Source: a virus
Taxonomy: Duplodnaviria > Heunggongvirae > Uroviricota > Caudoviricetes
Strand: one strand, 5' to 3'
IMG/VR virus record: IMGVR_UViG_2645727669_000017
DNA length: 40,004 nt
Part shown: positions 1,781-19,821 of the stretch, one piece after another
How positions within the stretch are numbered: position 1 is the stretch's first letter
Layout: the number at the start of each line of letters is the position of its first letter
The notes under the pieces: generated by a model
Told to the model about the DNA's origin: nothing
The model's input: only the letters and a program-made list of their open reading frames with translations
The model's database searches: none
Translations under genes and position numbers: made by a program

Positions 1781-3334
1781 TTATTGGTCAGGATATTTTG
1801 ATAGTTCAACTTCAAAAGTTGAATTTTTGTTTTTTAGAACATGAACAACACCTTTATAAAGTTGCCGTAATTTATTTACTGCATTTATATCAATGGAAGC
1901 AGGGGAGAATGCTCGGATAAGATTGTTGAAGATTTCCTTGGAGTAAGCAGATTTCTTCTTTTTATCAAGAGAGTCCATTCTTTTAATAATGATTTCTAAA
2001 AGATATGTCTTTTGATTGTTATGCATTTTTTCTGAAGTAATAATCAGATACATCATTTCCCCCAAGGTTTTAGAGGCAAAGAACTCTGGAGATTGCTCTT
2101 TATCTTCTGTTGTCCAGTTATCATAATTGAGGTGTTCTGTTGCTCCTGCCCATATATTACAACGGCTGATTAGCTCATATATTAAATAATCAAATCGCAT
2201 GGGGAACTCTCTATTTACATCTATGCTGCTAGATTTTTCATAGCTCTCAAGTATTTCCTTTAGGAAACAACGATAATACATGAGCCACATATTGTTTTTT
2301 GAGCGTTTGAATATTGCTGTAGATACCATAACATCGAAAAACGTCAATCCAACGAAGATTGGGCATTCCCAACGCTCATCACTACTTGAATAGTAATTAT
2401 CTGGATGATTGTAAAAGCAAGAACTCCCTTTTTGTTTTTTTATGTAGCTAATGACATAATTACCCACAGGTTTCCATATTTCTAAATCTATCGCCATGCG
2501 AATATCATTTAAATAAAAATTAAGCAAGGCATTACTTTCGTCGAGTGCATACTCCCCTGTATATGAACGATTTTGGTTGTCTCGTAACTCCCTATACATA
2601 ATGCTGTTTGGGTTAGATATTAAATACGTAAAGAAATTTGTATTATACTCACAATTATATCTAAGCTGTAAGCAGGTGGCCTTCATAGCTACGTGAGGGT
2701 AAGTATCAATTAGATAATGTGAAAAAACCTTTGATTTCAGAAGATTGGATATATTTAATTGAATATCATTTTGTCTTTTGTCTTCATAAGGGAAAAACTT
2801 TGACATAAATCTCCTGACTTTTTTGAATCGTAATTTTTTTACCTTCTCTTCATCCATTTCAATGGGAGATAATGAAGGGGCTAAGTAATTATGTACGCGA
2901 ACATACCATTTTTTATTGCTGATTATATTGAATAGCTGCTCGTGATATTTATCAAAAAGATATCCTAGTTGTTCTATTTTTTTTGCGCGCAGATATGTTT
3001 CTGAAACACTGATCCAACAGGTAAGGTTTGCTTTTGGTAGTATTTTGCCCTGTACTTTAATTCCAAAAAATATAATTATGATACAAAGACAAGTAAAAGC
3101 CAATGTATCTTCGTTAAAACCGAGTATCCAAGGGATCGGTTTTATCGGGAAAACACTTAGCAAAACCTTAGAATATATAACTGTTAATATTGTTGATATA
3201 AAAAAGATAATGAATACTAAATTAAATTTAGATATGCGTAACCTTAAATCAACACGTCTCTCATCCGTTAAGAGAGTATACCAAGCAATAAGTATGACGA
3301 AGACTGCTAGTAAACCATTGGCACCCATTATCAC
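1781..3334 (-). CDS. AT-rich membrane-anchored protein of unknown function (about 3 N-terminal TM helices plus ~420-aa soluble domain); candidate phage-defence or exclusion gene
   Basis: 517-aa ORF; hydrophobic N-terminus (LLAVFVILIAWYTLL, LVFIIFFISTILTVIY, LAFTCLCIIIIFFGI); N/K/I/Y/F-rich composition and visibly low GC versus flanking DNA; AT-rich promoter-like sequence upstream at 3335-3385. Confidence 0.6.
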   Translation of the reverse strand: MIMGANGLLAVFVILIAWYTLLTDERRVDLRLRISKFNLVFIIFFISTILTVIYSKVLLSVFPIKPIPWILGFNEDTLAFTCLCIIIIFFGIKVQGKILPKANLTCWISVSETYLRAKKIEQLGYLFDKYHEQLFNIISNKKWYVRVHNYLAPSLSPIEMDEEKVKKLRFKKVRRFMSKFFPYEDKRQNDIQLNISNLLKSKVFSHYLIDTYPHVAMKATCLQLRYNCEYNTNFFTYLISNPNSIMYRELRDNQNRSYTGEYALDESNALLNFYLNDIRMAIDLEIWKPVGNYVISYIKKQKGSSCFYNHPDNYYSSSDERWECPIFVGLTFFDVMVSTAIFKRSKNNMWLMYYRCFLKEILESYEKSSSIDVNREFPMRFDYLIYELISRCNIWAGATEHLNYDNWTTEDKEQSPEFFASKTLGEMMYLIITSEKMHNNQKTYLLEIIIKRMDSLDKKKKSAYSKEIFNNLIRAFSPASIDINAVNKLRQLYKGVVHVLKNKNSTFEVELSKYPDQ

Positions 3335-8524: not shown

Positions 8525-9217
8525 TTAATTGTGTCGCTTAAGGGTTTGTGACTGACTGATTAAGACCTTTCCAAAGACCATAAACCGATGTTCGTTTTCG
8601 CTGGTAATTCCCCATTCGCGGTAAATCTGATTATCAGAAATTACCAGCAGTTTATCAGGTATCATTTGCAGTCGTTTGACGTAAATTTTATCATCAAAAC
8701 CAAATACATATATACCATCCCCATCAAACTGATTGATACTGATATCAACGAAGATGAGATCTCCTGGCTCAATGGTTGGACACATACTGTCCCCACGAAC
8801 GTTGATAACTTTAATGTGATTTGCTGGTCGTCCACCAAACATCGATACAGCATTATCAGTTCTGTATTCAATGGCATGAATCACATCAATGACATCACCG
8901 CCCTGGATAAGGCCATTTCCCGCACTGGCACTGACATCCAGCATTTCAATACGGAATACATCCTTCACCTGCGCAACATCCTCACTAATACTGTTTTTAC
9001 ATACAGTATTACTTTTGAGGTCTGAGGTAAAGAGATCAGCAATATCAACACCTAAGCTCCTGGCAATATTACTCAGGGCTTGTTCAGTGAATTGTTTCTG
9101 CTTACCTGTTTCGAGGCGCGAGATATTCGCCGCATCCACTCCTATTGCTTCAGCGAGATCGGCGATTTTCATGTTCTTCGCCTGGCGAAGTTGTCTGACT
9201 CGATTTCCTATGTTCAT
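8525..9217 (-). CDS. CI-like prophage repressor (XRE HTH + S24 LexA-type autopeptidase domain)
   Basis: 230-aa ORF; N-terminal HTH (RVRQLRQAKNMKIADLAEAIGVDAANISRLETGK); C-terminal S24 signature (GDSMCPTI...KRL); divergent from the cro-like gene. Confidence 0.9.
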   Translation of the reverse strand: MNIGNRVRQLRQAKNMKIADLAEAIGVDAANISRLETGKQKQFTEQALSNIARSLGVDIADLFTSDLKSNTVCKNSISEDVAQVKDVFRIEMLDVSASAGNGLIQGGDVIDVIHAIEYRTDNAVSMFGGRPANHIKVINVRGDSMCPTIEPGDLIFVDISINQFDGDGIYVFGFDDKIYVKRLQMIPDKLLVISDNQIYREWGITSENEHRFMVFGKVLISQSQTLKRHN

Positions 9218-11497: not shown

Positions 11498-12312
11498 GTA
11501 TGGAGCTGATGGTTAAAGCGATGAAAATTCGAGTGGGTAATCCATTGCGAAAACTGGTTCTGATCAAGCTGGCTGATAATGCCAGCGATCAGGGGGAGTG
11601 CTGGCCCAGCTACCAGCATATTGCTGACCAGTGCGAGATTAGCAAACGTTCTGTGATGAATCATATTGCGGCCCTTTGTGAGTCCGGGCTGGTAAAAAAA
11701 GTCACCCGGAAAGGTGAAAAAGGTAACTCAAGTAATATCTATCTCCTTCATCTGGATGGTGCAGGAGATTCACTAGGGGGTAGTGCAAATAATTCACTAT
11801 CTGGCGCAGCAAATTCACCAGGTAGTGCAGGAGTTGCACCAGGGGGTAGTGCAGGAGATTCACCCAGAACCAGTCACTCTTTTGAACCAGTCAAAGAACC
11901 AGTCAATGAACCAATAGCTGTTGGTGCATCAGTTGATGAGTCTGTGCGAGTTCGTTCAAACCGACCGGAATACTCTCCGGAGTTTGAGCAGGCATGGCTG
12001 GCATATCCCAAACGTGCTGGTGGCAATTCAAAATCTGCAGCCTTCAAAGCCTGGAAAGCCCGTTTGAATGAGGGGGTAAACCCCGAAACCATGCTGGAAG
12101 GTGTGAAACGCTACGCGGGCTGGGTATCTGCGATGGGTAACAGCGGCACACAATTTGTGAAACAGGCTGTCACGTTCTTTGGTCCGGATCGTCATTTCGA
12201 AGAATCCTGGGAAGTTCCTGCGGTATCTGCAGCCAGACGTGAGGACCCGTACTTCAAAGCCAGTTACGACAACGTGGACTACAGCCAGATCCCGGCAGGA
12301 TTCAGGGGGTGA
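11494..12312 (+). CDS. Replication initiation protein (O-like, N-terminal winged HTH) with internal origin iterons
   Basis: 272-aa ORF; N-terminal HTH (SYQHIADQCEISKRSVMNHIAALCESGLVKK); Gly/Ser/Ala-rich repetitive linker encoded by direct DNA repeats; position after cro/cII. Confidence 0.65.
   Translation: MSMELMVKAMKIRVGNPLRKLVLIKLADNASDQGECWPSYQHIADQCEISKRSVMNHIAALCESGLVKKVTRKGEKGNSSNIYLLHLDGAGDSLGGSANNSLSGAANSPGSAGVAPGGSAGDSPRTSHSFEPVKEPVNEPIAVGASVDESVRVRSNRPEYSPEFEQAWLAYPKRAGGNSKSAAFKAWKARLNEGVNPETMLEGVKRYAGWVSAMGNSGTQFVKQAVTFFGPDRHFEESWEVPAVSAARREDPYFKASYDNVDYSQIPAGFRG
11759..11910. repeat. Iteron-like direct repeats inside the replication gene; candidate ori
   Basis: About four copies of GG(T/G)AGTGCAGGAG(A/T)T(T/G)CAC between 11759 and 11866, followed by three GAACCAGTC repeats (11866-11910). 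Confidence 0.5.
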
Positions 12313-12314
12313 TC

Positions 12315-12803
12315 ATGAGTCTTTTGAATGAAGTTCAGAAATACATTGAAGCCCATCCGGGGTGTACTTCCGGAGACATTGCGGATGCTTTTGCAGGTTA
12401 CTCACGGCAGCGCGTTCTGCAGTATGCAAGCAAGTTACGTCAGAGTGGGCGTGTGGCTCACCGTTGTGAAGGAGATACACGCAGACATTTCCCGCGCCTG
12501 ACTGAGAGAGCGCAGGAGCTGGAACCACAACCAGTTCGTGAAACCAGACCTGTGCGCAATTTCTATGTCGGCACTAACGACCCGCGGGTGATTTTGTGCC
12601 TGACCCGCCAGGCGGAAGAACTGGAGTCAAGGGGCTTATACCGTCGTGCTGCAACCGTGTGGATGGCGGCATTCCGTGAAAGCCACTCCCAGCCAGAACG
12701 AAACAATTTTCTGGCACGTCGTGAGCGGTGCTTACGGAAAAGCAGCAAGCGCGCTGCATCGGGTGAAGAGTGGTATCTGTCAGGGAATTACGTGGGGGCT
12801 TAA
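12315..12803 (+). CDS. PerC-family transcriptional regulator homologue with N-terminal winged-helix region
   Basis: PerC-like motif LESRGLYRRAATVWMAAF...RRERCLRK; ATG 12315 with AGGGGG RBS; TAATG overlap with the next gene. Confidence 0.5.
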   Translation: MSLLNEVQKYIEAHPGCTSGDIADAFAGYSRQRVLQYASKLRQSGRVAHRCEGDTRRHFPRLTERAQELEPQPVRETRPVRNFYVGTNDPRVILCLTRQAEELESRGLYRRAATVWMAAFRESHSQPERNNFLARRERCLRKSSKRAASGEEWYLSGNYVGA

Positions 12804-13456
12804 TGAGTAATAAATATTGCCGGGCGCTGGTGGAACTGCGGAACAAACCAGCCCATGAACTGAAGGAAGTGGGCGATCAGTGGCGCACGCCGGATAACAT
12901 TTTCTGGGGAATTAACACCCTGTTTGGCCCGTTTGTCCTGGATCTGTTTACTGACGGTGATAACGCCAAATGTACCGCGTATTACACGGCGGAAGACAAC
13001 GCGCTGGCGCATGACTGGTCAGAACGTCTTGCGGAGCTTAAAGGTGCTGCCTTTGGTAATCCCCCATACAGCCGCGCCAGTCAGCATGAGGGGCAATACA
13101 TCACCGGCATGCGTTACATCATGAAACATGCCAGTGCCATGCGTGATAAAGGCGGGCGCTATGTTTTCCTGATCAAAGCTGCCACCTGCGAAGTGTGGTG
13201 GCCGGAAGATGCAGATCATATTGCTTTTATTCGCGGGCGTATTGGTTTTGAACTGCCTGCCTGGTTTATCCCGAAAGATGAGAAGCAGGTGCCGACAGGC
13301 GCTTTCTTCGCTGGTGCTATTGCTGTTTTCGACAAGACCTGGAAGGGACCGGCAATCAGCTACATCGGGCGCGATGAACTTGAGGCATGTGGTGAGGCGT
13401 TTCTGGCGCAGGTTCGCCAGCAGGCAGAAAAACTGGTCAGGGAGATGGCGGCATGA
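12803..13456 (+). CDS. Phage DNA N6-adenine methyltransferase (Dam-like)
   Basis: NPPY catalytic motif (GNPPYS) within a ~217-aa product; start from TAATG overlap at 12803. Confidence 0.8.
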   Translation: MSNKYCRALVELRNKPAHELKEVGDQWRTPDNIFWGINTLFGPFVLDLFTDGDNAKCTAYYTAEDNALAHDWSERLAELKGAAFGNPPYSRASQHEGQYITGMRYIMKHASAMRDKGGRYVFLIKAATCEVWWPEDADHIAFIRGRIGFELPAWFIPKDEKQVPTGAFFAGAIAVFDKTWKGPAISYIGRDELEACGEAFLAQVRQQAEKLVREMAA

Positions 13457-13779
13457 CGACGTTAACTCAATGCCAGCAGCAGGTGCTGGATATGCTGATT
13501 TCTTATCAGAAAGAACGTGGCTTCCCGCCAACCAATCAGGAGGTGGCAACCATGCTGGGATACCGTTCAGTGAATGCAGCGGTGGAGCATCTTCGCGCAC
13601 TGGAGAAAAAAGGCGTCATCACGATAAAGCGTGGCGTGGCCCGGGGGATCACGCTTCATACCGCGGTGAAGGACGACGACAGCGAGGCGGTCGGGATTAT
13701 CCGCTCACTGCTTGCCGGTGAGGAAAACGCAAGGCTGCGTGCAACCCACTGGTTACATGAGAGAGGCTTGAAAGCATGA
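13453..13779 (+). CDS. LexA-like DNA-binding-domain protein lacking the S24 protease domain
   Basis: 108-aa ORF; N-terminus (LTQCQQQVLDMLISYQKERGFPPTNQEVATMLGYRSVNAAVEHLRALEKKGVI) parallels the LexA N-terminal winged HTH; no Ser/Lys dyad domain. Confidence 0.6.
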   Translation: MTTLTQCQQQVLDMLISYQKERGFPPTNQEVATMLGYRSVNAAVEHLRALEKKGVITIKRGVARGITLHTAVKDDDSEAVGIIRSLLAGEENARLRATHWLHERGLKA

Positions 13780-14165
13780 AGCTGATCCTGCCTTTTCCGC
13801 CCAGCGTGAACACGTACTGGCGACACCCCAACAAAGGGGCGTTTGCTGGTAAGAGCCTGATAAGCTCGGCGGGGCGAAAATTCCAGAGCGCGGCGTGCGC
13901 AGCAATAGTTGAGCAGTTACGTCGTCTGCCGAAACCAACGTCGGCACCTGCTTCAGTGGAGATCGTGTTGTTTCCTCCGGATAACCGGATCCGCGATCTG
14001 GACAACTATAACAAGGCGCTGTTTGACGCCCTGACCCATGCGGGTGTGTGGGAAGACGACAGTCAGGTGAAAAGAATGCTGGTGGAGTGGGGACCGGTTA
14101 TCCCGAAAGGGAAGGTCGAGATCACTATCAGTAAGTACGAGAAAACGGCGGGTGCAGCCGCCTGA
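13776..14165 (+). CDS. rusA: RusA Holliday junction resolvase
   Basis: 129-aa ORF with RusA-like LPFPPSVNTYWRH and DLDNYNKALFDALT motifs. Confidence 0.85.
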   Translation: MKLILPFPPSVNTYWRHPNKGAFAGKSLISSAGRKFQSAACAAIVEQLRRLPKPTSAPASVEIVLFPPDNRIRDLDNYNKALFDALTHAGVWEDDSQVKRMLVEWGPVIPKGKVEITISKYEKTAGAAA

Positions 14166-14184
14166 TCAAGAGGAGAAACGAAGT

Positions 14185-14994
14185 ATGAATAATCTGATGG
14201 TCATTGATGGTATTGAAGTTCGTCGTGATGCTTATGGGCGTTACAGCCTGAACGATCTGCATCGCGCAGCAGTAGCATCTGGTGCAAATGCCAGAACCAA
14301 GGAGCCGGGAAAGTTTCTTTCCAGCCAACAAACTGTTGAGCTTGTTCATGAATTGACCAACACCCAGAATTTGGGTGTTGACCCGGTGAGTGTGATTCAT
14401 GGGGGAAATGAACGGGGAACGTATGTCTGCAAGGAACTGGTGTATGCCTATGCAATGTGGATCAGCCCGTCATTCCATCTGAAGGTGATCCGTACTTTCG
14501 ATATGGTAACCAGCGCACCGGAAAAATTATCCGGACAGGCTGCTGACAAGATGCAGGCTGGCGTGATCCTGCTGGACTTTATGCGCCGGGAGTTAAACCT
14601 GTCTAACTCTTCAGTGCTTGGTGCCTGTCAGAAACTCCAGGAGGCTGTTGGCTTACCGAATCTGGCACCGCGCTATGCCATTGATGCTCCTGCTGATGCA
14701 CACGATGGCTCAAGTCGCCCGACACTGTCACTGAGTGCACTGCTGAAACAGTATGGTATACGCCTGACGGCTAATCAGGCATATCACCAGATGGTGAAAC
14801 TGGGGATCGTCGAGCAGCGCGAACGATACAGCCGTACCGCGATTAACAACATCAAAAAATTCTGGTCGCTGACAGCGAAAGGCTGCATGTTCGGCAAGAA
14901 CATCACCAGTCCCGCAAATCCGCGCGAGACGCAGCCGCATTTCTTCGAATCCCGATTCTCTGAGCTGTTAAAGCTGCTCGATACCGTTCATTGA
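14185..14994 (+). CDS. KilA-N domain protein
   Basis: N-terminal KilA-N signature (VIHGGNERGTYVCKELVYAYAMWISPSFHLKVIRTF); internal ATG 14185 preceded by AAGAGGAG RBS. Confidence 0.7.
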   Translation: MNNLMVIDGIEVRRDAYGRYSLNDLHRAAVASGANARTKEPGKFLSSQQTVELVHELTNTQNLGVDPVSVIHGGNERGTYVCKELVYAYAMWISPSFHLKVIRTFDMVTSAPEKLSGQAADKMQAGVILLDFMRRELNLSNSSVLGACQKLQEAVGLPNLAPRYAIDAPADAHDGSSRPTLSLSALLKQYGIRLTANQAYHQMVKLGIVEQRERYSRTAINNIKKFWSLTAKGCMFGKNITSPANPRETQPHFFESRFSELLKLLDTVH

Positions 14995-14995
14995 G

Positions 14996-15991
14996 GTGAC
15001 CGTGAGAGCACTACTGACCCCTGAAATTGCCCCGCGTATGGGGATCGTATTGTTCAGGCCAGGTTCAGAGCTGATGCCCCTGTTTATGCAGGGGCGTGTC
15101 CTGCTGGAGCCTGAGCCGGAGCGTTATTCATCTTTCGCCAGTGGTGCCGTTCCGGCGGCATCACAACCGCTGGCGGATGATCCTGCCGTTCGGGCCGTGT
15201 TCCGCAATGAGGCAGTGATCCGTCGTGCTGGTGGCGTGGAATGTCTTGAAAGCTGGTTACTTCGTGAAAAAGGCTGCCAGTGGCCTCATTCCGACTGGCA
15301 CAGCGAGAACATGACCACAATGCGACACGCTCCGGGTGCAATCCGTCTGTGCTGGCACTGCGATAACCAGCTGCGCGATCAGTTCACGGAACGGCTGGAA
15401 TCAATGGCAACGGATAACTGTGCCCGCTGGGTGTTGTCTGTTGTGCGTCGGGATCTCGGTTTTGATGACAGTCACGTTGTGACAATGCCGGAACTGTGCT
15501 GGTGGCTGATTCGTAATGATCTGGCGGATGCCTTACCGGAAAGTGCAGCCCGTAAGGCACTGAGATTACCGAAGCCTGTTGTGCCGTCTGTTACCCGGGA
15601 AAGTGACCTTGTGCCTTCGGTTCCTGCCACCAGCATCATCCAGGATAAGGCGAAAAAGGTGCTGGCGCTGAAAGTGGATCCGGAGTCGCCGGAGTCTTTT
15701 ATGTTACGCCCAAAACGTCGCCGCTGGGTTAATGAAAAGTACACGCGCTGGGTTAAGACACAGCCGTGTGCATGTTGTGGAAAGCCCGCTGATGATCCCC
15801 ACCACCTGATAGGTCACGGTCAGGGTGGAATGGGAACAAAAGCGCATGACCTTTTTGTGTTGCCTTTGTGCAGAAAGCATCACGACGAGCTGCATGCGGA
15901 TACCGTGGCATTTGAAGAGAAGTATGGCTCCCAGCTGGAGCTGATATTTCGTTTTATCGATCGTGCGCTGGCAATTGGCGTGCTGGCCTGA
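14996..15991 (+). CDS. DUF968-like prophage protein with C-terminal HNH-type zinc-finger nuclease motif
   Basis: 331-aa ORF (GTG start); C-terminal [13 protein letters not shown]...HHDELH typical of HNH/DUF968 proteins of lambdoid nin regions. Confidence 0.6.
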
Positions 15992-16008
15992 TTTTGTGGA
16001 GAAAGTTG

Positions 16009-16374
16009 ATGCGTGATATTCAAATGGTTCTTGAACGTTGGGGGGCATGGGTGGCAAATAATCACGAGGATGTCACCTGGTCGTCTATTGCTGCAGGATT
16101 TAAAGGACTAATCCCTTCAAAAGTAAAATCCCGCCCGCAATGTTGTGACGATGACGCGATGATCATTTGTGGATGCATGGCTCGCCTGAAAAAGAACAAC
16201 AGCGATTTGCACGATTTATTAGTGGATTATTATGTAGGTGGTATGACTTTTATGGCGCTTGCCCGTAAACATGGGCGTTCTGATTGCTGGGTTGGGCGTT
16301 TATTGCAAAAGGCTGAAGGTGTAGTTGATGGCATGTTAATGATGTTAGAAATTGAGCTAGAGATGGATCGTTAG
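16009..16374 (+). CDS. Late-gene antiterminator Q (short Q family)
   Basis: ~121-aa product from internal ATG ([14 protein letters not shown]...) with Cys-rich zinc-binding core ([16 protein letters not shown]); last gene before the late region. Confidence 0.65.
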
Positions 16375-16385
16375 AAGACCTCTTA

Positions 16386-16414
16386 TTGAGGGGGTAATTG
16401 AATCAGTTTAATGT
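16386..16414 (+). promoter_or_regulatory. Candidate late promoter pR'
   Basis: TTGAGG (16386-16391), 17-nt spacer, TAATGT (16409-16414), immediately downstream of the Q stop. Confidence 0.3.
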
Positions 16415-16415
16415 G

Positions 16416-16446
16416 TGGGGAGTCGATTTATTCTCCCCATTTTATT
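16416..16446 (+). terminator. Rho-independent terminator (candidate tR') just downstream of the putative late promoter
   Basis: TGGGGAG (16416-16422), 10-nt loop, CTCCCCA (16433-16439), then a T-rich run. Confidence 0.5.
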
Positions 16447-16454
16447 TAATTTAT

Positions 16455-16901
16455 TTAAGGTTTTAATTCATCAAGACGTTGTTGGATAGTGTTTTTGCTT
16501 GCGTTGTCTGTTATAGACATTTGTTGTACTTGCCCCATTGCCATTTGAGTTTCCATCCACATATCGGCCCACACTTTTGTATCGTTATTAACTTGAGCGA
16601 TAGTAAATCTGACTTTTGATACCGGGGTTGTTGAATAGGCATTGCCGATTAACATTTGTCCAAAAACAGCAGAGCCGCCTTCCAGTTCTTTACCACATAT
16701 AACACTGCTGTTATCCGCGTTGTAAATTATCAACCCTCTACTATTGCAGTAATTCACAAGGGCATCTTTGACTTTATCTTTTGTCGTATTTTGATAAACC
16801 CCCTCAGGTTTTCCTGATTGAGTTTTCTTTATCAATGGTACGGAAGAAGTACAACCTGAAATGATAGTTGCGCTAAGTAATAGTACAGTCATTTTATTCA
16901 T
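16455..16901 (-). CDS. Lipoprotein moron of unknown function, antisense to late transcription between Q and the lysis genes
   Basis: 148-aa ORF with lipoprotein signal peptide and lipobox (LLLSATIISGC); AT-rich; opposite orientation to flanking genes. Confidence 0.6.
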   Translation of the reverse strand: MNKMTVLLLSATIISGCTSSVPLIKKTQSGKPEGVYQNTTKDKVKDALVNYCNSRGLIIYNADNSSVICGKELEGGSAVFGQMLIGNAYSTTPVSKVRFTIAQVNNDTKVWADMWMETQMAMGQVQQMSITDNASKNTIQQRLDELKP

Positions 16902-17147
16902 GTTTCTTATCCATTGTTAAGGGCATACCCACACAATTATTTTTATTGGAGATGAATAATCAACCGTTTACAATCGTAAAAAATCAAATATGCTGTTAAG
17001 AGTGGTTACTTCGCCACACAACTTAAACCCGCCGCTGAGCGGTTTTTTTGTACCTGTAAACCTGGTGCAGTACAGTAAACACGCTGGTGGTCGTGAATAC
17101 TGACTTTTTATCTTGCTGGCTTTTTAGACAAGAGTTATTGGTATGTC

Positions 17148-17375
17148 ATGTTAACCAGAAGGGAAAAAGACATGCTAAAACAGCAAGATATGACAGAAAC
17201 CGCCGCCGCAGTCCTTCATTTCTTACCTGCTGACAAGTGGGTAACGCCACGCATGATGACGAGAACTACCGGAGTAAGCGAAGCCCGGTGCCAGTTAATA
17301 CTGACTCAGTTAGTTCTGGCGGGTCTGGCGAAGGATAACGGCGGGTACGGGAATAAATTCAGACGCTGCCAGTAA
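17148..17375 (+). CDS. Small putative winged-helix DNA-binding protein
   Basis: 75-aa ORF upstream of the methyltransferase; function unknown. Confidence 0.35.
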   Translation: MLTRREKDMLKQQDMTETAAAVLHFLPADKWVTPRMMTRTTGVSEARCQLILTQLVLAGLAKDNGGYGNKFRRCQ

Positions 17376-17525
17376 TGGCGGTTTCCTGCTGTGAAAATGG
17401 GCGGCTGGTGGGTGTTGGTAGCACCTGCCAGCCATTCGCTCATGCTTACTGGTCACAAGCGAACCACGGCCCACTGCTTTAGCGCAAAAGCAGAGTGAGC
17501 CTACCAGAGTTACGCTTACTGATCC

Positions 17526-18578
17526 ATGAAAAATACTGTAAAAATAAACAGTGTTGATTTAATCAACGCTGATTGCCTGCATTTTATTCAGTCCCTGCCT
17601 GATGATTCCATTGACCTGATTGTTACCGATCCGCCGTACTTCAAGGTGAAACCCAACGGCTGGGACAATCAGTGGAAAGGGGACGAAGATTACCTTAAGT
17701 GGCTGGACCACTGTCTGGCCCAGTTCTGGCGGGTGTTAAAACCTGCCGGAAGCCTTTACCTGTTCTGTGGGCATCGCCTGGCATCTGATATTGAGATCAT
17801 GATGCGTGAACGTTTCAACGTGCTTAACCATATCATCTGGGCGAAGCCGTCCGGACGTTGGAATGGGTGTAATAAAGAAAGTCTGCGTGCATATTTTCCA
17901 GCCACAGAGCGCGTTCTGTTTGCTGAACATTACCAGGGGCCATATCGCGGCAAAAGTGACGGCTATGCGGCAAAAGAAAGGGAACTCAAACAGCACATAA
18001 TGGCACCGCTGATTTCGTATTTCAGGGATGCTCGTGCCGAACTGGGTATAACGGCAAAACAAATTGCCGAAGCCACAGGTAAGAAAAATATGGTTTCCCA
18101 CTGGTTTGGTGCCAGTCAGTGGCAGTTGCCGAATGAGGCTGACTATCGGAAGTTACAGGCACTGTTTTCCCGTATAGCGGCAGAGAAGTTTCAGGAACAA
18201 CAACTGGAACAACCACACCACCAGCTGGTGGCATCTTATGATTCACTGAATCGCAAATATTCTGAATTGCTGGATGAGTTTAAATCTCTCCGGCGCTATT
18301 TCTCCGTATCAGTCTCCGTGCCTTATACCGATGTCTGGATGCATAAACCCGTTCAGTTCTACCCGGGTAAACATCCGTGTGAGAAACCTGCGGATATGCT
18401 CCGGCAAATAATCAATGCCAGTAGTCGACCTGGTGATCTGGTTGCTGATTTTTTTATGGGATCCGGTTCCACAATAAAAGCAGCAATGGCGCTGGGGCGT
18501 CGGGCCTTAGGTGTTGAGCTTGAGTCAGAGCGGTTTAACCAGACAGTGAAAGAGATAAACGAGCTGGTGGGGAAATAA
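17526..18578 (+). CDS. Orphan N6-adenine/N4-cytosine DNA methyltransferase
   Basis: 350-aa ORF with DPPY catalytic motif (IVTDPPYF) near the N-terminus and a C-terminal AdoMet-binding region (DFFMGSGST); no adjacent restriction enzyme. Confidence 0.85.
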   Translation: MKNTVKINSVDLINADCLHFIQSLPDDSIDLIVTDPPYFKVKPNGWDNQWKGDEDYLKWLDHCLAQFWRVLKPAGSLYLFCGHRLASDIEIMMRERFNVLNHIIWAKPSGRWNGCNKESLRAYFPATERVLFAEHYQGPYRGKSDGYAAKERELKQHIMAPLISYFRDARAELGITAKQIAEATGKKNMVSHWFGASQWQLPNEADYRKLQALFSRIAAEKFQEQQLEQPHHQLVASYDSLNRKYSELLDEFKSLRRYFSVSVSVPYTDVWMHKPVQFYPGKHPCEKPADMLRQIINASSRPGDLVADFFMGSGSTIKAAMALGRRALGVELESERFNQTVKEINELVGK

Positions 18579-18584
18579 TCTGGT

Positions 18585-18606
18585 GGCCACGTAGGTGGCC
18601 TTTTTA
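18585..18606 (+). terminator. Hairpin plus T-run between the methyltransferase and the holin
   Basis: GGCCAC (18585-18590), loop GTAG, GTGGCC (18595-18600), then TTTTT. Confidence 0.4.
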
Positions 18607-18644
18607 TTTCCATTACACAGCACCCGCATCTGCGAGGTGGGGTT

Positions 18645-18860
18645 ATGAAATCCATGGATAAGTTAACAACGGGTGTCGCCTATGGCACCTCAGCAGGTAG
18701 TGCCGGGTACTGGTTTTTACAGTTGCTCGATAAAGTCACGCCCTCACAGTGGGCGGCAATAGGTGTGCTGGGTAGTCTGGTATTTGGCTTGCTGACGTAT
18801 CTGACAAACCTTTATTTCAAGATTAAAGAAGATAAGCGTAAGGCTGCGAGAGGTGAATAA
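18645..18860 (+). CDS. Class II holin (phage 21 S-type pinholin) with dual start
   Basis: 71-aa ORF; two TM segments; MKSMDK dual-start arrangement (ATG 18645 and 18654); strong resemblance to the S21 holin. Confidence 0.85.
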
Positions 18861-19357
18861 TGTCGCCATCATTACGCAAGGCTGTTGCTGCTGCTATTGG
18901 TGGTGGGGCTGTTGCCATAGCGTCTGTGCTCATCACTGGTCCGAGTGGTGACGATGGCCTGGAAGGTGTCAGCTACATACCATACAAAGATATCGTTGGC
19001 GTATGGACTGTATGCCACGGACACACCGGAAAAGACATCATGCTAGGTAAAACGTATACCGAAGCAGAATGCAAAGCCCTCCTGAATAAAGACCTTGCCA
19101 CGGTCGCCAGACAAATTAACCCGTACATCAAAGTCGATATACCGGAAACAACGCGCGGCGCTCTTTACTCGTTCGTCTACAACGTGGGTGCTGGCAATTT
19201 CAGAACATCGACGCTTCTTCGCAAAATAAACCAGGGCGATATCAAAGGCGCATGTGACCAGCTACGTCGCTGGACATACGCTGGCGGTAAGCAATGGAAA
19301 GGCCTGATGACTCGTCGTGAGATTGAGCGTGAAGTCTGTTTGTGGGGGCAACAATGA
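18860..19357 (+). CDS. SAR endolysin (lysozyme with N-terminal signal-anchor-release domain)
   Basis: 165-aa ORF; Gly/Ala-rich weakly hydrophobic N-terminus ([20 protein letters not shown]) followed by a lysozyme-like domain; pairs with the pinholin. Confidence 0.85.
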
Positions 19358-19821
19358 GCAGAGTAACCGCGATTATCTCCGCTCTGGTTATCTGCATCAT
19401 CGTCTGCCTGTCGTGGGCGGTCAATCATTACCGTGATAACGCCATCGCCTACAAAGAACAGCGTGATAAAAAAGTCAGTGAGCTGAAGCAGGCGACCGCC
19501 ACCATCGCTGACATGCAGCAGCGTCAGCGTGATGTTGCTGCGATCGATGCAAAATACACGAAGGAGTTAGCCGATGCGAAAACTGAAAATGAAACTCTGC
19601 GCGCTGATGTTGCCGCTGGTCGTAAGCGCCTGCGGGTCAATGCCAGTTGCTCCGCAGCCGTGCGTGAAGCCACCGGACCCACCAGCATGGATAATGCAAC
19701 CAGCCCCCGACTGGCAGACACCGCTGAACGGGATTATTTCACCCTCAGAGAACGGTTGATGACGATGCAGAAGCAACTGGAAGGGGCGCAGGAATATATC
19801 CGCACCCAGCGCATTAAGTAG
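19354..19821 (+). CDS. rz: Rz i-spanin
   Basis: N-terminal TM segment then coiled coil; ATGA overlap with the endolysin stop; contains the embedded Rz1 frame. Confidence 0.8.
19574..19759 (+). CDS. rz1: Rz1 o-spanin lipoprotein, embedded in the +1 frame of Rz
   Basis: 61-aa ORF wholly inside Rz; lipobox LVVSAC; proline-rich mature region. Confidence 0.8.

Follow-up and report, generated by a model that had tools for sequence, protein, structure and literature searches.

Why should a temperate phage carry two separate DNA adenine methyltransferases and a restriction enzyme for neither of them? The question is raised by a 40,004-nucleotide (nt) stretch of DNA from a tailed phage of the Caudoviricetes (IMG/VR record IMGVR_UViG_2645727669_000017; this whole stretch is called the window below), which holds a Dam-family methyltransferase gene at positions 12803-13456 (gene 1) and a second, unrelated methyltransferase gene at positions 17526-18578 (gene 2). 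The explanation that we favor, and consider probable when taken as a whole, is that these are two unrelated and independently assorting orphan adenine-methylase cassettes, which belong to two temporal units of the phage program and serve protection against restriction. The pair as such is ordinary, since both methylases are already known and annotated in published phages. Potential novelty is confined to the unit formed by a structured leader, a small winged-helix open reading frame (ORF), and gene 2, together with its Q-dependent placement in the late operon.

Two Methyltransferase Genes Lacking a Restriction Partner

A preliminary description of this DNA had listed two orphan methyltransferases, and this claim holds: both genes are real, intact, and orphan. 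No restriction endonuclease gene is adjacent to gene 1 or gene 2, the neighbors on both sides being non-nucleases by profile annotation, and no nuclease was detected by Pfam or PADLOC in the subset of unannotated window ORFs that was examined. PADLOC recognizes just the two methylases. Neither of them, then, has the adjacent endonuclease gene that characterizes a Type II restriction-modification (R-M) system.

Gene 2 Belongs to the M.EcoGII Family

Gene 2, located on the plus strand, encodes a protein of 350 amino acids (aa) that matches the Pfam family PF01555 (N6_N4_Mtase; E-value 2.2e-42), with the match, residues 29-341, split round a central insert. The motif TDPPYF (residues 34-39) is N-terminal and the motif FFMGSGST (residues 309-316) is C-terminal; because of this order of DPPY, central recognition domain, and FxGxG, the protein is assigned to the beta class of N6-adenine methyltransferases. 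It is 81% identical and 90% similar to M.EcoGII from end to end, 89% identical to the reconstructed ancestor Anc291, and 70% identical to Anc284/SUPREM, the reference sequences of M.EcoGII and the ancestors having been machine-read from the supplement of PMC11551740, so that a few letters may be wrong. The alignments with M.EcoGII, Anc291, and SUPREM each consist of a single match with at most three gaps and span the recognition domain (residues 160-237), as expected of close relatives. The methylase of phage 1720a-02, which has been named as the carrier of a close M.EcoGII homolog (PMC5778455), is likewise 81% identical over its full length. The gene had been described earlier as a separate N4/N6 methyltransferase with a DPPY motif; the motif and the family are as claimed, but the protein is a relative of M.EcoGII rather than a generic site-specific enzyme.

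M.EcoGII is a 349-aa beta-class prophage enzyme from E. coli O104:H4 that methylates adenine in any context in double-stranded DNA, single-stranded DNA, and RNA; the lysogen does not express it, and constitutive expression is harmful (PMC5778455). DNA was methylated by every reconstructed ancestor, and M.EcoGII, Anc291, and SUPREM modified RNA without a motif (PMC11551740). Since the protein encoded by gene 2 is bracketed by tested non-specific enzymes, we strongly infer that this allele would be non-site-specific as well.

The same literature describes homologs that are silent in their hosts. M.EcoGI and M.EcoGII gave no detectable methylation in lysogens (PMC5778455), and M.EcoMV was found to be transcriptionally inactive by reverse-transcription PCR (RT-PCR) in a study that also presents single-molecule real-time sequencing data (PMC4659465). 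Homologs in ST131 and O111 strains were described as "nonspecific" and transcriptionally silent, with no motif detected (PMC4659465, PMC6602927). The silence and toxicity of these homologs are also treated in a review (PMC12707154).

Relatives of gene 2 occur in more than 600 IMG/VR stretches, the best 80 of which are at least 99% identical, and identical copies of the protein are widespread. With one genome taken per species, the methylase is 64-93% identical across the Enterobacterales, including Xenorhabdus, Photorhabdus, and Yersinia. Among solved structures none is closely related to the protein, the best matches having E-values of about 3e-24. M.EcoGIX, considered as a further phage-borne non-specific enzyme, was dropped, as the literature describes it as plasmid-borne and single-strand specific. 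The label "site-specific DNA-methyltransferase" given to members of the gene 2 family is probably misleading for prophage annotation.

Placement in the Late Operon

The gene for the late antiterminator Q (16009-16374, plus strand; PF06530, E-value 2e-51; start as annotated in PhiR40_1) lies upstream of gene 2 and is 74% identical at the DNA level to Q of the Shiga toxin (Stx) phage VT2-Sakai. It is followed on the plus strand by a candidate late promoter pR' of the sigma-70-like form TTTACA-16 nt-TATGCT (16967-16994) and by a candidate terminator tR', an intrinsic terminator-like hairpin with seven T (17031-17050). The segment 16966-17054 is 79% identical to the segment found directly 3' of Q in VT2-Sakai, where pR' reportedly fires constitutively, its transcript being terminated in the lysogen if Q does not act (PMC7547250). 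Another terminator-like hairpin with a T run (18585-18610, plus strand) separates gene 2 from the holin gene (18645-18860, plus strand; phrog_20, phrog_9876), the first of the lysis cassette, which continues with the lysozyme (18860-19357) and Rz (19342-19821) genes, identified from ORFs and the annotation of relatives. Thus Q, a promoter with a terminator, and late genes on the same strand, which together make up a lambdoid late operon, are all present.

Comparison with related phages defines the position of gene 2 further. In mEp460, which has an unrelated Q, homology with the window resumes exactly at 17026, indicating that the segment with the promoter and the Q-utilization site travels with Q, and that the terminator, small ORF, methylase, and holin constitute a separate module. 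The Q allele varies among loci, and the winged-helix ORF and the methylase are constant. Phage 1720a-02 has the same methylase between Q and stx2A. In VT2-Sakai (our locus L004, 20463-20560) there is a remnant of about 100 nt from the 3' end of an M.EcoGII-type gene (...KAAMALGRRAIGVELESGRFEQTV...), which lies 3' of the mapped tR' and 5' of the tRNA and stx2 genes; an M.EcoGII-type methylase hence appears to be ancestral to the stx slot and to have been deleted later. Taken together, the homology of the promoter-terminator region and the comparisons with VT2-Sakai and 1720a-02 indicate that gene 2 occupies the stx slot of the late operon.

This placement, which like the structured leader goes beyond the account of the preliminary description, provides a concrete reason for the silence in lysogens: a position behind pR' and a terminator would explain why the homologs are silent there, and late expression is predicted for gene 2. 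It also bears on the view that both enzymes are ordinary site-specific orphans, expressed in the lysogen and acting epigenetically on host or prophage genes. Orphan phage methylases can indeed regulate genes, and gene 1 is situated in the early region. The early operon of lambdoid prophages is, however, repressed by cI in the lysogen; gene 2 lies behind pR' and its terminator, and its close homologs, as described above, showed neither a motif nor methylation in lysogens, were silent by RT-PCR in the case of M.EcoMV, and are toxic when expressed constitutively. We therefore regard lysogenic expression of two site-specific enzymes as very improbable. Of the two roles that had been offered for the pair, anti-restriction would be the most likely one, and gene 2, given its silent and toxic homologs, is unlikely to act epigenetically in the lysogen. 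By the same token, a comparison of the methylomes of the lysogen and a cured strain, proposed earlier as a check, is the wrong test for gene 2: it would falsely "refute" an enzyme that is active but silent in the lysogen.

Three smaller observations concern the same region. In Stx phages, the segment 16966-17054 has a homologous counterpart in the 5' part of the StxS small-RNA locus, and a short, constitutive, terminated RNA may also be made by this non-Stx prophage. The idea that the 3' part of StxS in VT2-Sakai derives from the methylase remnant was rejected, since the remnant lies 3' of the mapped tR'. Finally, a minus-strand gene for a 148-aa lipoprotein (16455-16901; GC content 0.39; PHROG 3152), classed as a moron, has been inserted in the interval from Q to pR'; among related loci it accompanies this Q allele and no other.

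A Structured Leader Precedes Gene 2

About 135 nt immediately 5' of gene 2 (17391-17525, plus strand), delimited by alignment and a covariance model, form a structured leader with three hairpins, A (17403-17433), B (17435-17463), and C (17468-17501), all on the plus strand. The leader sequence is strongly conserved, including in loci that have no winged-helix ORF. The spacer between the stop codon of the winged-helix ORF and the AUG of the methylase is almost constant in length; most genera have 146-154 nt, and Xenorhabdus and Photorhabdus have 79-102 nt. In the latter two genera (our loci L138-L164) the short spacer retains an element resembling hairpin A but obtains low scores from the model, and it probably represents the leader in reduced form.

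RNAalifold, applied to a MAFFT alignment, returned only a partial structure, and the covariance model, built from 38 sequences, combines a hand-curated structure with realignment to the model. With this model each locus yields a single copy that in every case ends at the start codon of the methylase; the model matches the window with 154 bits, phage 1720a-02, and 53 genome loci with at least 65 bits, and its search of VT2-Sakai, where the methylase has been lost, found no leader. Compensatory double changes are seen in 18 of the 30 leader pairs, and 84% of the alignment cells pair, compared with 27-46% when the partners are slid. None of 500 shuffles reached the observed pairing values, although the sequences are related and the shuffle thus overstates significance, the slid control being the more honest one. 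Folding of the plus strand against shuffled controls gave z = -2.8 (z = -1.4 for the minus strand), and the frequent G-U pairs indicate that the leader folds as plus-strand RNA. A 15-mer from the leader was found in 77 newly fetched IMG/VR loci, directly followed by the methylase in 69; in 65 of these 69 the methylase starts exactly 61 nt after the 15-mer. In the other eight loci the 15-mer stands without the remainder of the motif and probably matches by chance.

Searches of Rfam 15 gave no match at E <= 1 over 16300-18700, and at E <= 10 over 16940-17560 all matches were far below gathering scores. The possibility that the leader is a small ORF (MGGWWVL...) was rejected, since in most loci it stops after seven codons, the frames vary, and the ATG ORF is not conserved.

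Could the sequence 5' of the methylase be something other than a cis-acting leader, namely a small RNA acting in trans, a product processed from the late transcript, or an element that works as DNA? Its end lies at the methylase AUG in every case, with constant spacing, no copy occurs without the methylase, and it has no terminator of its own; moreover, the G-U pairs and compensatory changes point to plus-strand RNA and not to a DNA site. The alternative draws on the Stx phages, in which terminated or processed pR' transcripts act as small RNAs (StxS, PMC7547250), and on the terminator-like hairpin found directly upstream of the leader in many loci. On balance it seems unlikely to us.

The leader would rather act in cis and limit or time the translation of a toxic methylase. 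No Shine-Dalgarno sequence is present before the AUG of gene 2, where CUGAUCYAUG is nearly invariant. Two additional pairings involve this region or its surroundings: an alternative stem P1 (17397-17402 with 17438-17443), which overlaps hairpin B, and a possible loop-tail pairing between 17451-17455 and 17520-17524, the latter immediately preceding the AUG. In these, 97% of the cells are paired, and the changes are one-sided only, with no compensatory ones; as yet unproven, both pairings would be compatible with the data. The tail also contains a GATC (17521-17524), directly 5' of the AUG and nearly invariant in the leader alignments, which ends a GATC-free stretch of 1155 nt in the window. 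It may be part of the RNA pairing or a Dam-sensitive DNA site.

A Winged-Helix ORF Accompanies the Methylase

Upstream of the leader, on the plus strand, a small ORF (17172-17375) encodes a stand-alone protein of 67 aa, for which ATG at 17172 is the best start; the match to PHROG 331, a group without an assigned function, begins there. Relatives with 50-60% identity are named "TrmB family transcriptional regulator" in NCBI. [quoted passage not shown] The best PDB matches by Foldseek are TrmBL2, IclR N-domains, Z-alpha, and the SelB RNA-binding domain, with TM-scores of 0.6-0.8 and E-values of only about 4e-3 to 3e-2. Judged by this model, the product of the small ORF is a winged-helix protein, in agreement with what had been proposed before.

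A scan for the gene 2 methylase, again with one genome per species, gave 76 loci across the Enterobacterales. The winged-helix ORF is located directly upstream of the methylase on the same strand in 51 of them and nowhere else in those loci. Another 22 loci keep the leader and have no winged-helix ORF, which indicates that the winged-helix protein is dispensable for leader function.

The further suggestion that the small ORF might act as a controller fares less well. C proteins of R-M systems are, as far as is known, Xre-type helix-turn-helix proteins that time the expression of a restriction gene. The 67-aa protein has no helix-turn-helix match in Pfam or NCBIfam, including those of the HTH_3 type, its winged helix resembles TrmB, IclR, and Z-alpha and is not of the Xre type, and there is no restriction gene for it to control.

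Another proposal is that methylase 2 acts mainly on RNA, either rRNA or mRNA, with the winged-helix protein as its specificity subunit, and so modulates translation or prophage induction. M.EcoGII and the reconstructed ancestors do methylate RNA in vitro (PMC5778455, PMC11551740), although M.EcoGII is more active on DNA (PMC5778455; argued in PMC11551740). There is a direct precedent in M.EcoPA8orf6770P, a methylase of the Stx phage PA8, which forms a 1:1 complex with PNB-2, a winged helix-turn-helix protein encoded upstream, and is thereby redirected to 16S rRNA (PMC10810198); that enzyme, however, belongs to the MT-A70 family and not to the beta-class family PF01555. The linkage of the winged-helix ORF to methylase 2 in 51 of the 76 loci and the resemblance of its fold to the RNA-binding SelB and Z-alpha domains would suit a specificity subunit, but 22 loci lack the ORF, and the placement of the methylase just before the lysis genes fits modification of DNA bound for packaging. 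We consider RNA as the main substrate distinctly unlikely and retain DNA as the predicted target.

Gene 1 Is a Separate Dam-Family Cassette

Gene 1 (plus strand) lies in the early, nin-like region and encodes a protein of 217 aa with the sequence FGNPPYS, which contains the NPPY motif. The protein scores above the curated cut-offs both with the Pfam family PF05869 "Dam" (E-value 1.1e-44; 152.5 bits, cut-off 28.1) and with the NCBIfam equivalog TIGR01712 "phage N-6-adenine-methyltransferase" (251.3 bits, cut-off 97), and is thus a Dam-family phage N6-adenine methyltransferase. It is 98% identical to the product of "dam" in phages cdtI, SfII, and PhiR63_1. The nearest characterized relative that was identified, M.EcoVT2Dam (orf32 of VT2-Sakai), is 29% identical, with aligned NPPY motifs, and was reported to be GATC-specific (PMC6602927). 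Specificity is not transferable with confidence at this level of identity, and GATC would be a family-level guess for gene 1. The observed-to-expected ratio of GATC in the window is 0.71, a mild under-representation that is uninformative on the specificity of gene 1.

A search for solved structures related to gene 1 found no match. Two other assignments of this gene were considered and abandoned. One was a non-specific enzyme of the Hia5/Hin1523 type: the paper on these enzymes links neither this Dam family nor its characterized members to them, and they are described as alpha class by Murray et al. (PMC5778455). The other was a counterpart of M.EcoGV (GATC), the second "Dam homolog" of Stx phages, which is an MT-A70 enzyme like M.EcoPA8orf6770P and is unrelated to gene 1.

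Gene 1 is tightly packed between its neighbors: its start overlaps the stop of a gene for a PerC-like (ANR-related) small regulator (12309-12803), and its stop overlaps the start of a gene for a 108-aa LexA-type protein that consists of the DNA-binding domain and has no protease domain (13453-13779). We examined 64 IMG/VR loci that have the same gene 2 allele and both flanking genes of gene 1. Gene 1 is present in 48, and the other 16 join the PerC gene directly to the LexA gene, with a gap of 3 nt versus 653 nt. Therefore gene 1 is a clean gain/loss cassette that assorts independently of gene 2. Both cassette junctions (12760-12830 and 13420-13490) bear GTCAGGGA...ATGA, and in relatives without the Dam gene (e.g., our locus L016, 3880-3960) the PerC stop and the LexA start are fused as TAATGA. 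This arrangement suggests that the Dam cassette is gained and lost through recombination at the junction micro-homology.

Prophage Context

The window is a lambdoid prophage of E. coli of the SfV/mEp460/cdtI-like type. By ORF and profile annotation, its gene order starts with the integrase (386-1609) and continues with a cI-like repressor gene (8525-9217, minus strand) and a cII-like gene, after which come Rha, an O-like replication gene, the PerC-like gene, the Dam-like gene 1, the LexA DNA-binding-domain gene, RusA, KilA-N, and DUF968/HNH. From Q onward the order is Q, the minus-strand lipoprotein gene, the small ORF, methylase 2, holin, lysozyme, Rz, terminase, and the head and tail genes. 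A tRNA search found no tRNAs. Escherichia phages PhiR40_1 and PhiR55_1 match the region 12000-19500 with about 98% identity (93% covered), and vB_EcoS-569R4, cdtI, mEp460, Ayreon, and SfV show 97-99% identity across 70-83% of its length. Records of related phages already annotate both methylases, the first as "dam" or "DNA N-6-adenine-methyltransferase" and the second as "DNA methylase". Among 5426 complete E. coli genomes, gene 1 was found in 1725 and gene 2, at a coverage of at least 80%, in 1158.

A minus-strand ORF of 517 aa (1781-3334; GC content 0.33), flanked by the integrase gene and the early-left genes, is without a match in Pfam, NCBIfam, PADLOC, or PDB sequences, and its homologs form only 31 clusters, all labeled "hypothetical", in the Enterobacterales, Pseudomonas, and Shewanella. 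AF2 predicts a protein made up of helices alone (pLDDT 85.9), those at the N-terminus being hydrophobic, and a Foldseek search with this model found no structural match (best TM-score below 0.3). A hidden nuclease was rejected, since the model is all-helical and not of a nuclease fold, and no match was found; the ORF is a candidate moron, possibly with a function in exclusion or defense.

Discussion

The proposed sequence of events is as follows. The product of gene 1 would presumably be made soon after induction and methylate a short motif on the replicating phage DNA. Transcription of gene 2 would be restricted to the late lytic phase, when Q antiterminates; the gene product would hypermethylate the progeny DNA before packaging, so that the virions could resist many restriction systems sensitive to N6-methyladenine (m6A) in the next host. 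In the lysogen gene 2 would be off, and toxic genome-wide methylation would thereby be avoided. The winged-helix ORF and the leader both lie between the terminator and the start codon, and they might provide additional post-transcriptional control or substrate targeting.

A number of points weigh against this scheme. Hypermethylated DNA would itself be a target for methylation-dependent restriction, and the benefit would depend on the host. With 19% of its residues different from those of M.EcoGII, the product of gene 2 might in principle have a changed target-recognition domain, although the ancestors that bracket it speak against this. The pR' start and the terminator in the window are predictions from sequence; in VT2-Sakai tR' has been mapped to a second terminator, 258 nt away from pR' (PMC7547250), of which no counterpart was found in the window, where only the first terminator-like hairpin is seen. 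For the leader, the pairing that would occlude the start region shows one-sided changes only, and 22 loci keep the leader without the winged-helix ORF. As to gene 1, it is just 29% identical to its nearest characterized relative, and a GATC enzyme would look redundant in a dam+ host.

A bolder proposal is that the genes of the M.EcoGII family carry a dedicated and uncatalogued control module, consisting of the three-hairpin leader and, in two-thirds of the loci, the winged-helix protein, which would gate translation or set the substrate in the manner of Com and the mom leader in phage Mu. We put it forward tentatively, giving it slightly less than an even chance. If it is true, how a widely used biotechnology enzyme is regulated in its native setting, and perhaps also what it truly modifies in vivo, has been overlooked.

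Enzymes of the M.EcoGII type are standard tools for chromatin and RNA footprinting, and their biological role has been described as unknown (PMC11551740). The present analysis supplies their genomic context, and the conserved winged-helix partner and the structured leader are open to direct testing for translational control or substrate targeting.

Comparison with Known Systems

The closest known counterparts of gene 2 are M.EcoGII and M.EcoGI from the prophages of strain C227-11, with which it shares length (349 aa in M.EcoGII versus 350 aa), motif order, prophage location, and 81% identity. Homologs of M.EcoGII were reported to be widespread in E. coli prophages (PMC5778455), as is found here for gene 2. 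The product of gene 2 differs from M.EcoGII at about 19% of residues and is closer to Anc291. The genomic slot, the winged-helix partner, and the structured leader are not described in PMC5778455 or PMC11551740.

Gene 1 and M.EcoVT2Dam belong to the same family PF05869, have aligned NPPY motifs, and occupy the nin region between the replication genes and Q. At 29% identity, they differ in length (217 versus 175 aa), the protein encoded by gene 1 having a longer C-terminal part.

The 67-aa ORF resembles the C proteins of R-M systems as a small DNA-binding protein encoded just 5' of a methylase, and differs from them by its winged helix and by having no restriction gene. M.EcoPA8orf6770P with PNB-2 offers a nearer arrangement, in which a phage methylase annotated as DNA-adenine-specific has a winged helix-turn-helix protein encoded directly upstream, and this partner sets the substrate (PMC10810198). 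M.EcoPA8orf6770P differs from gene 2 in its family (MT-A70), its motif (DPPW), and its location near int.

Finally, the com-mom operon of phage Mu encodes a toxic, broadly protective adenine modifier that is silent in the lysogen and expressed late (PMC12707154). The window, too, has a toxic adenine modifier of predicted broad specificity, with a structured leader and the gene for a small nucleic-acid-binding protein ahead of it. Com is a zinc finger protein, in contrast to the winged helix here, Mom makes N6-acetamido-adenine and not m6A, and there is no sequence relationship between the two systems. By analogy with Mu, the winged-helix protein or the leader of gene 2 may have a regulatory role.

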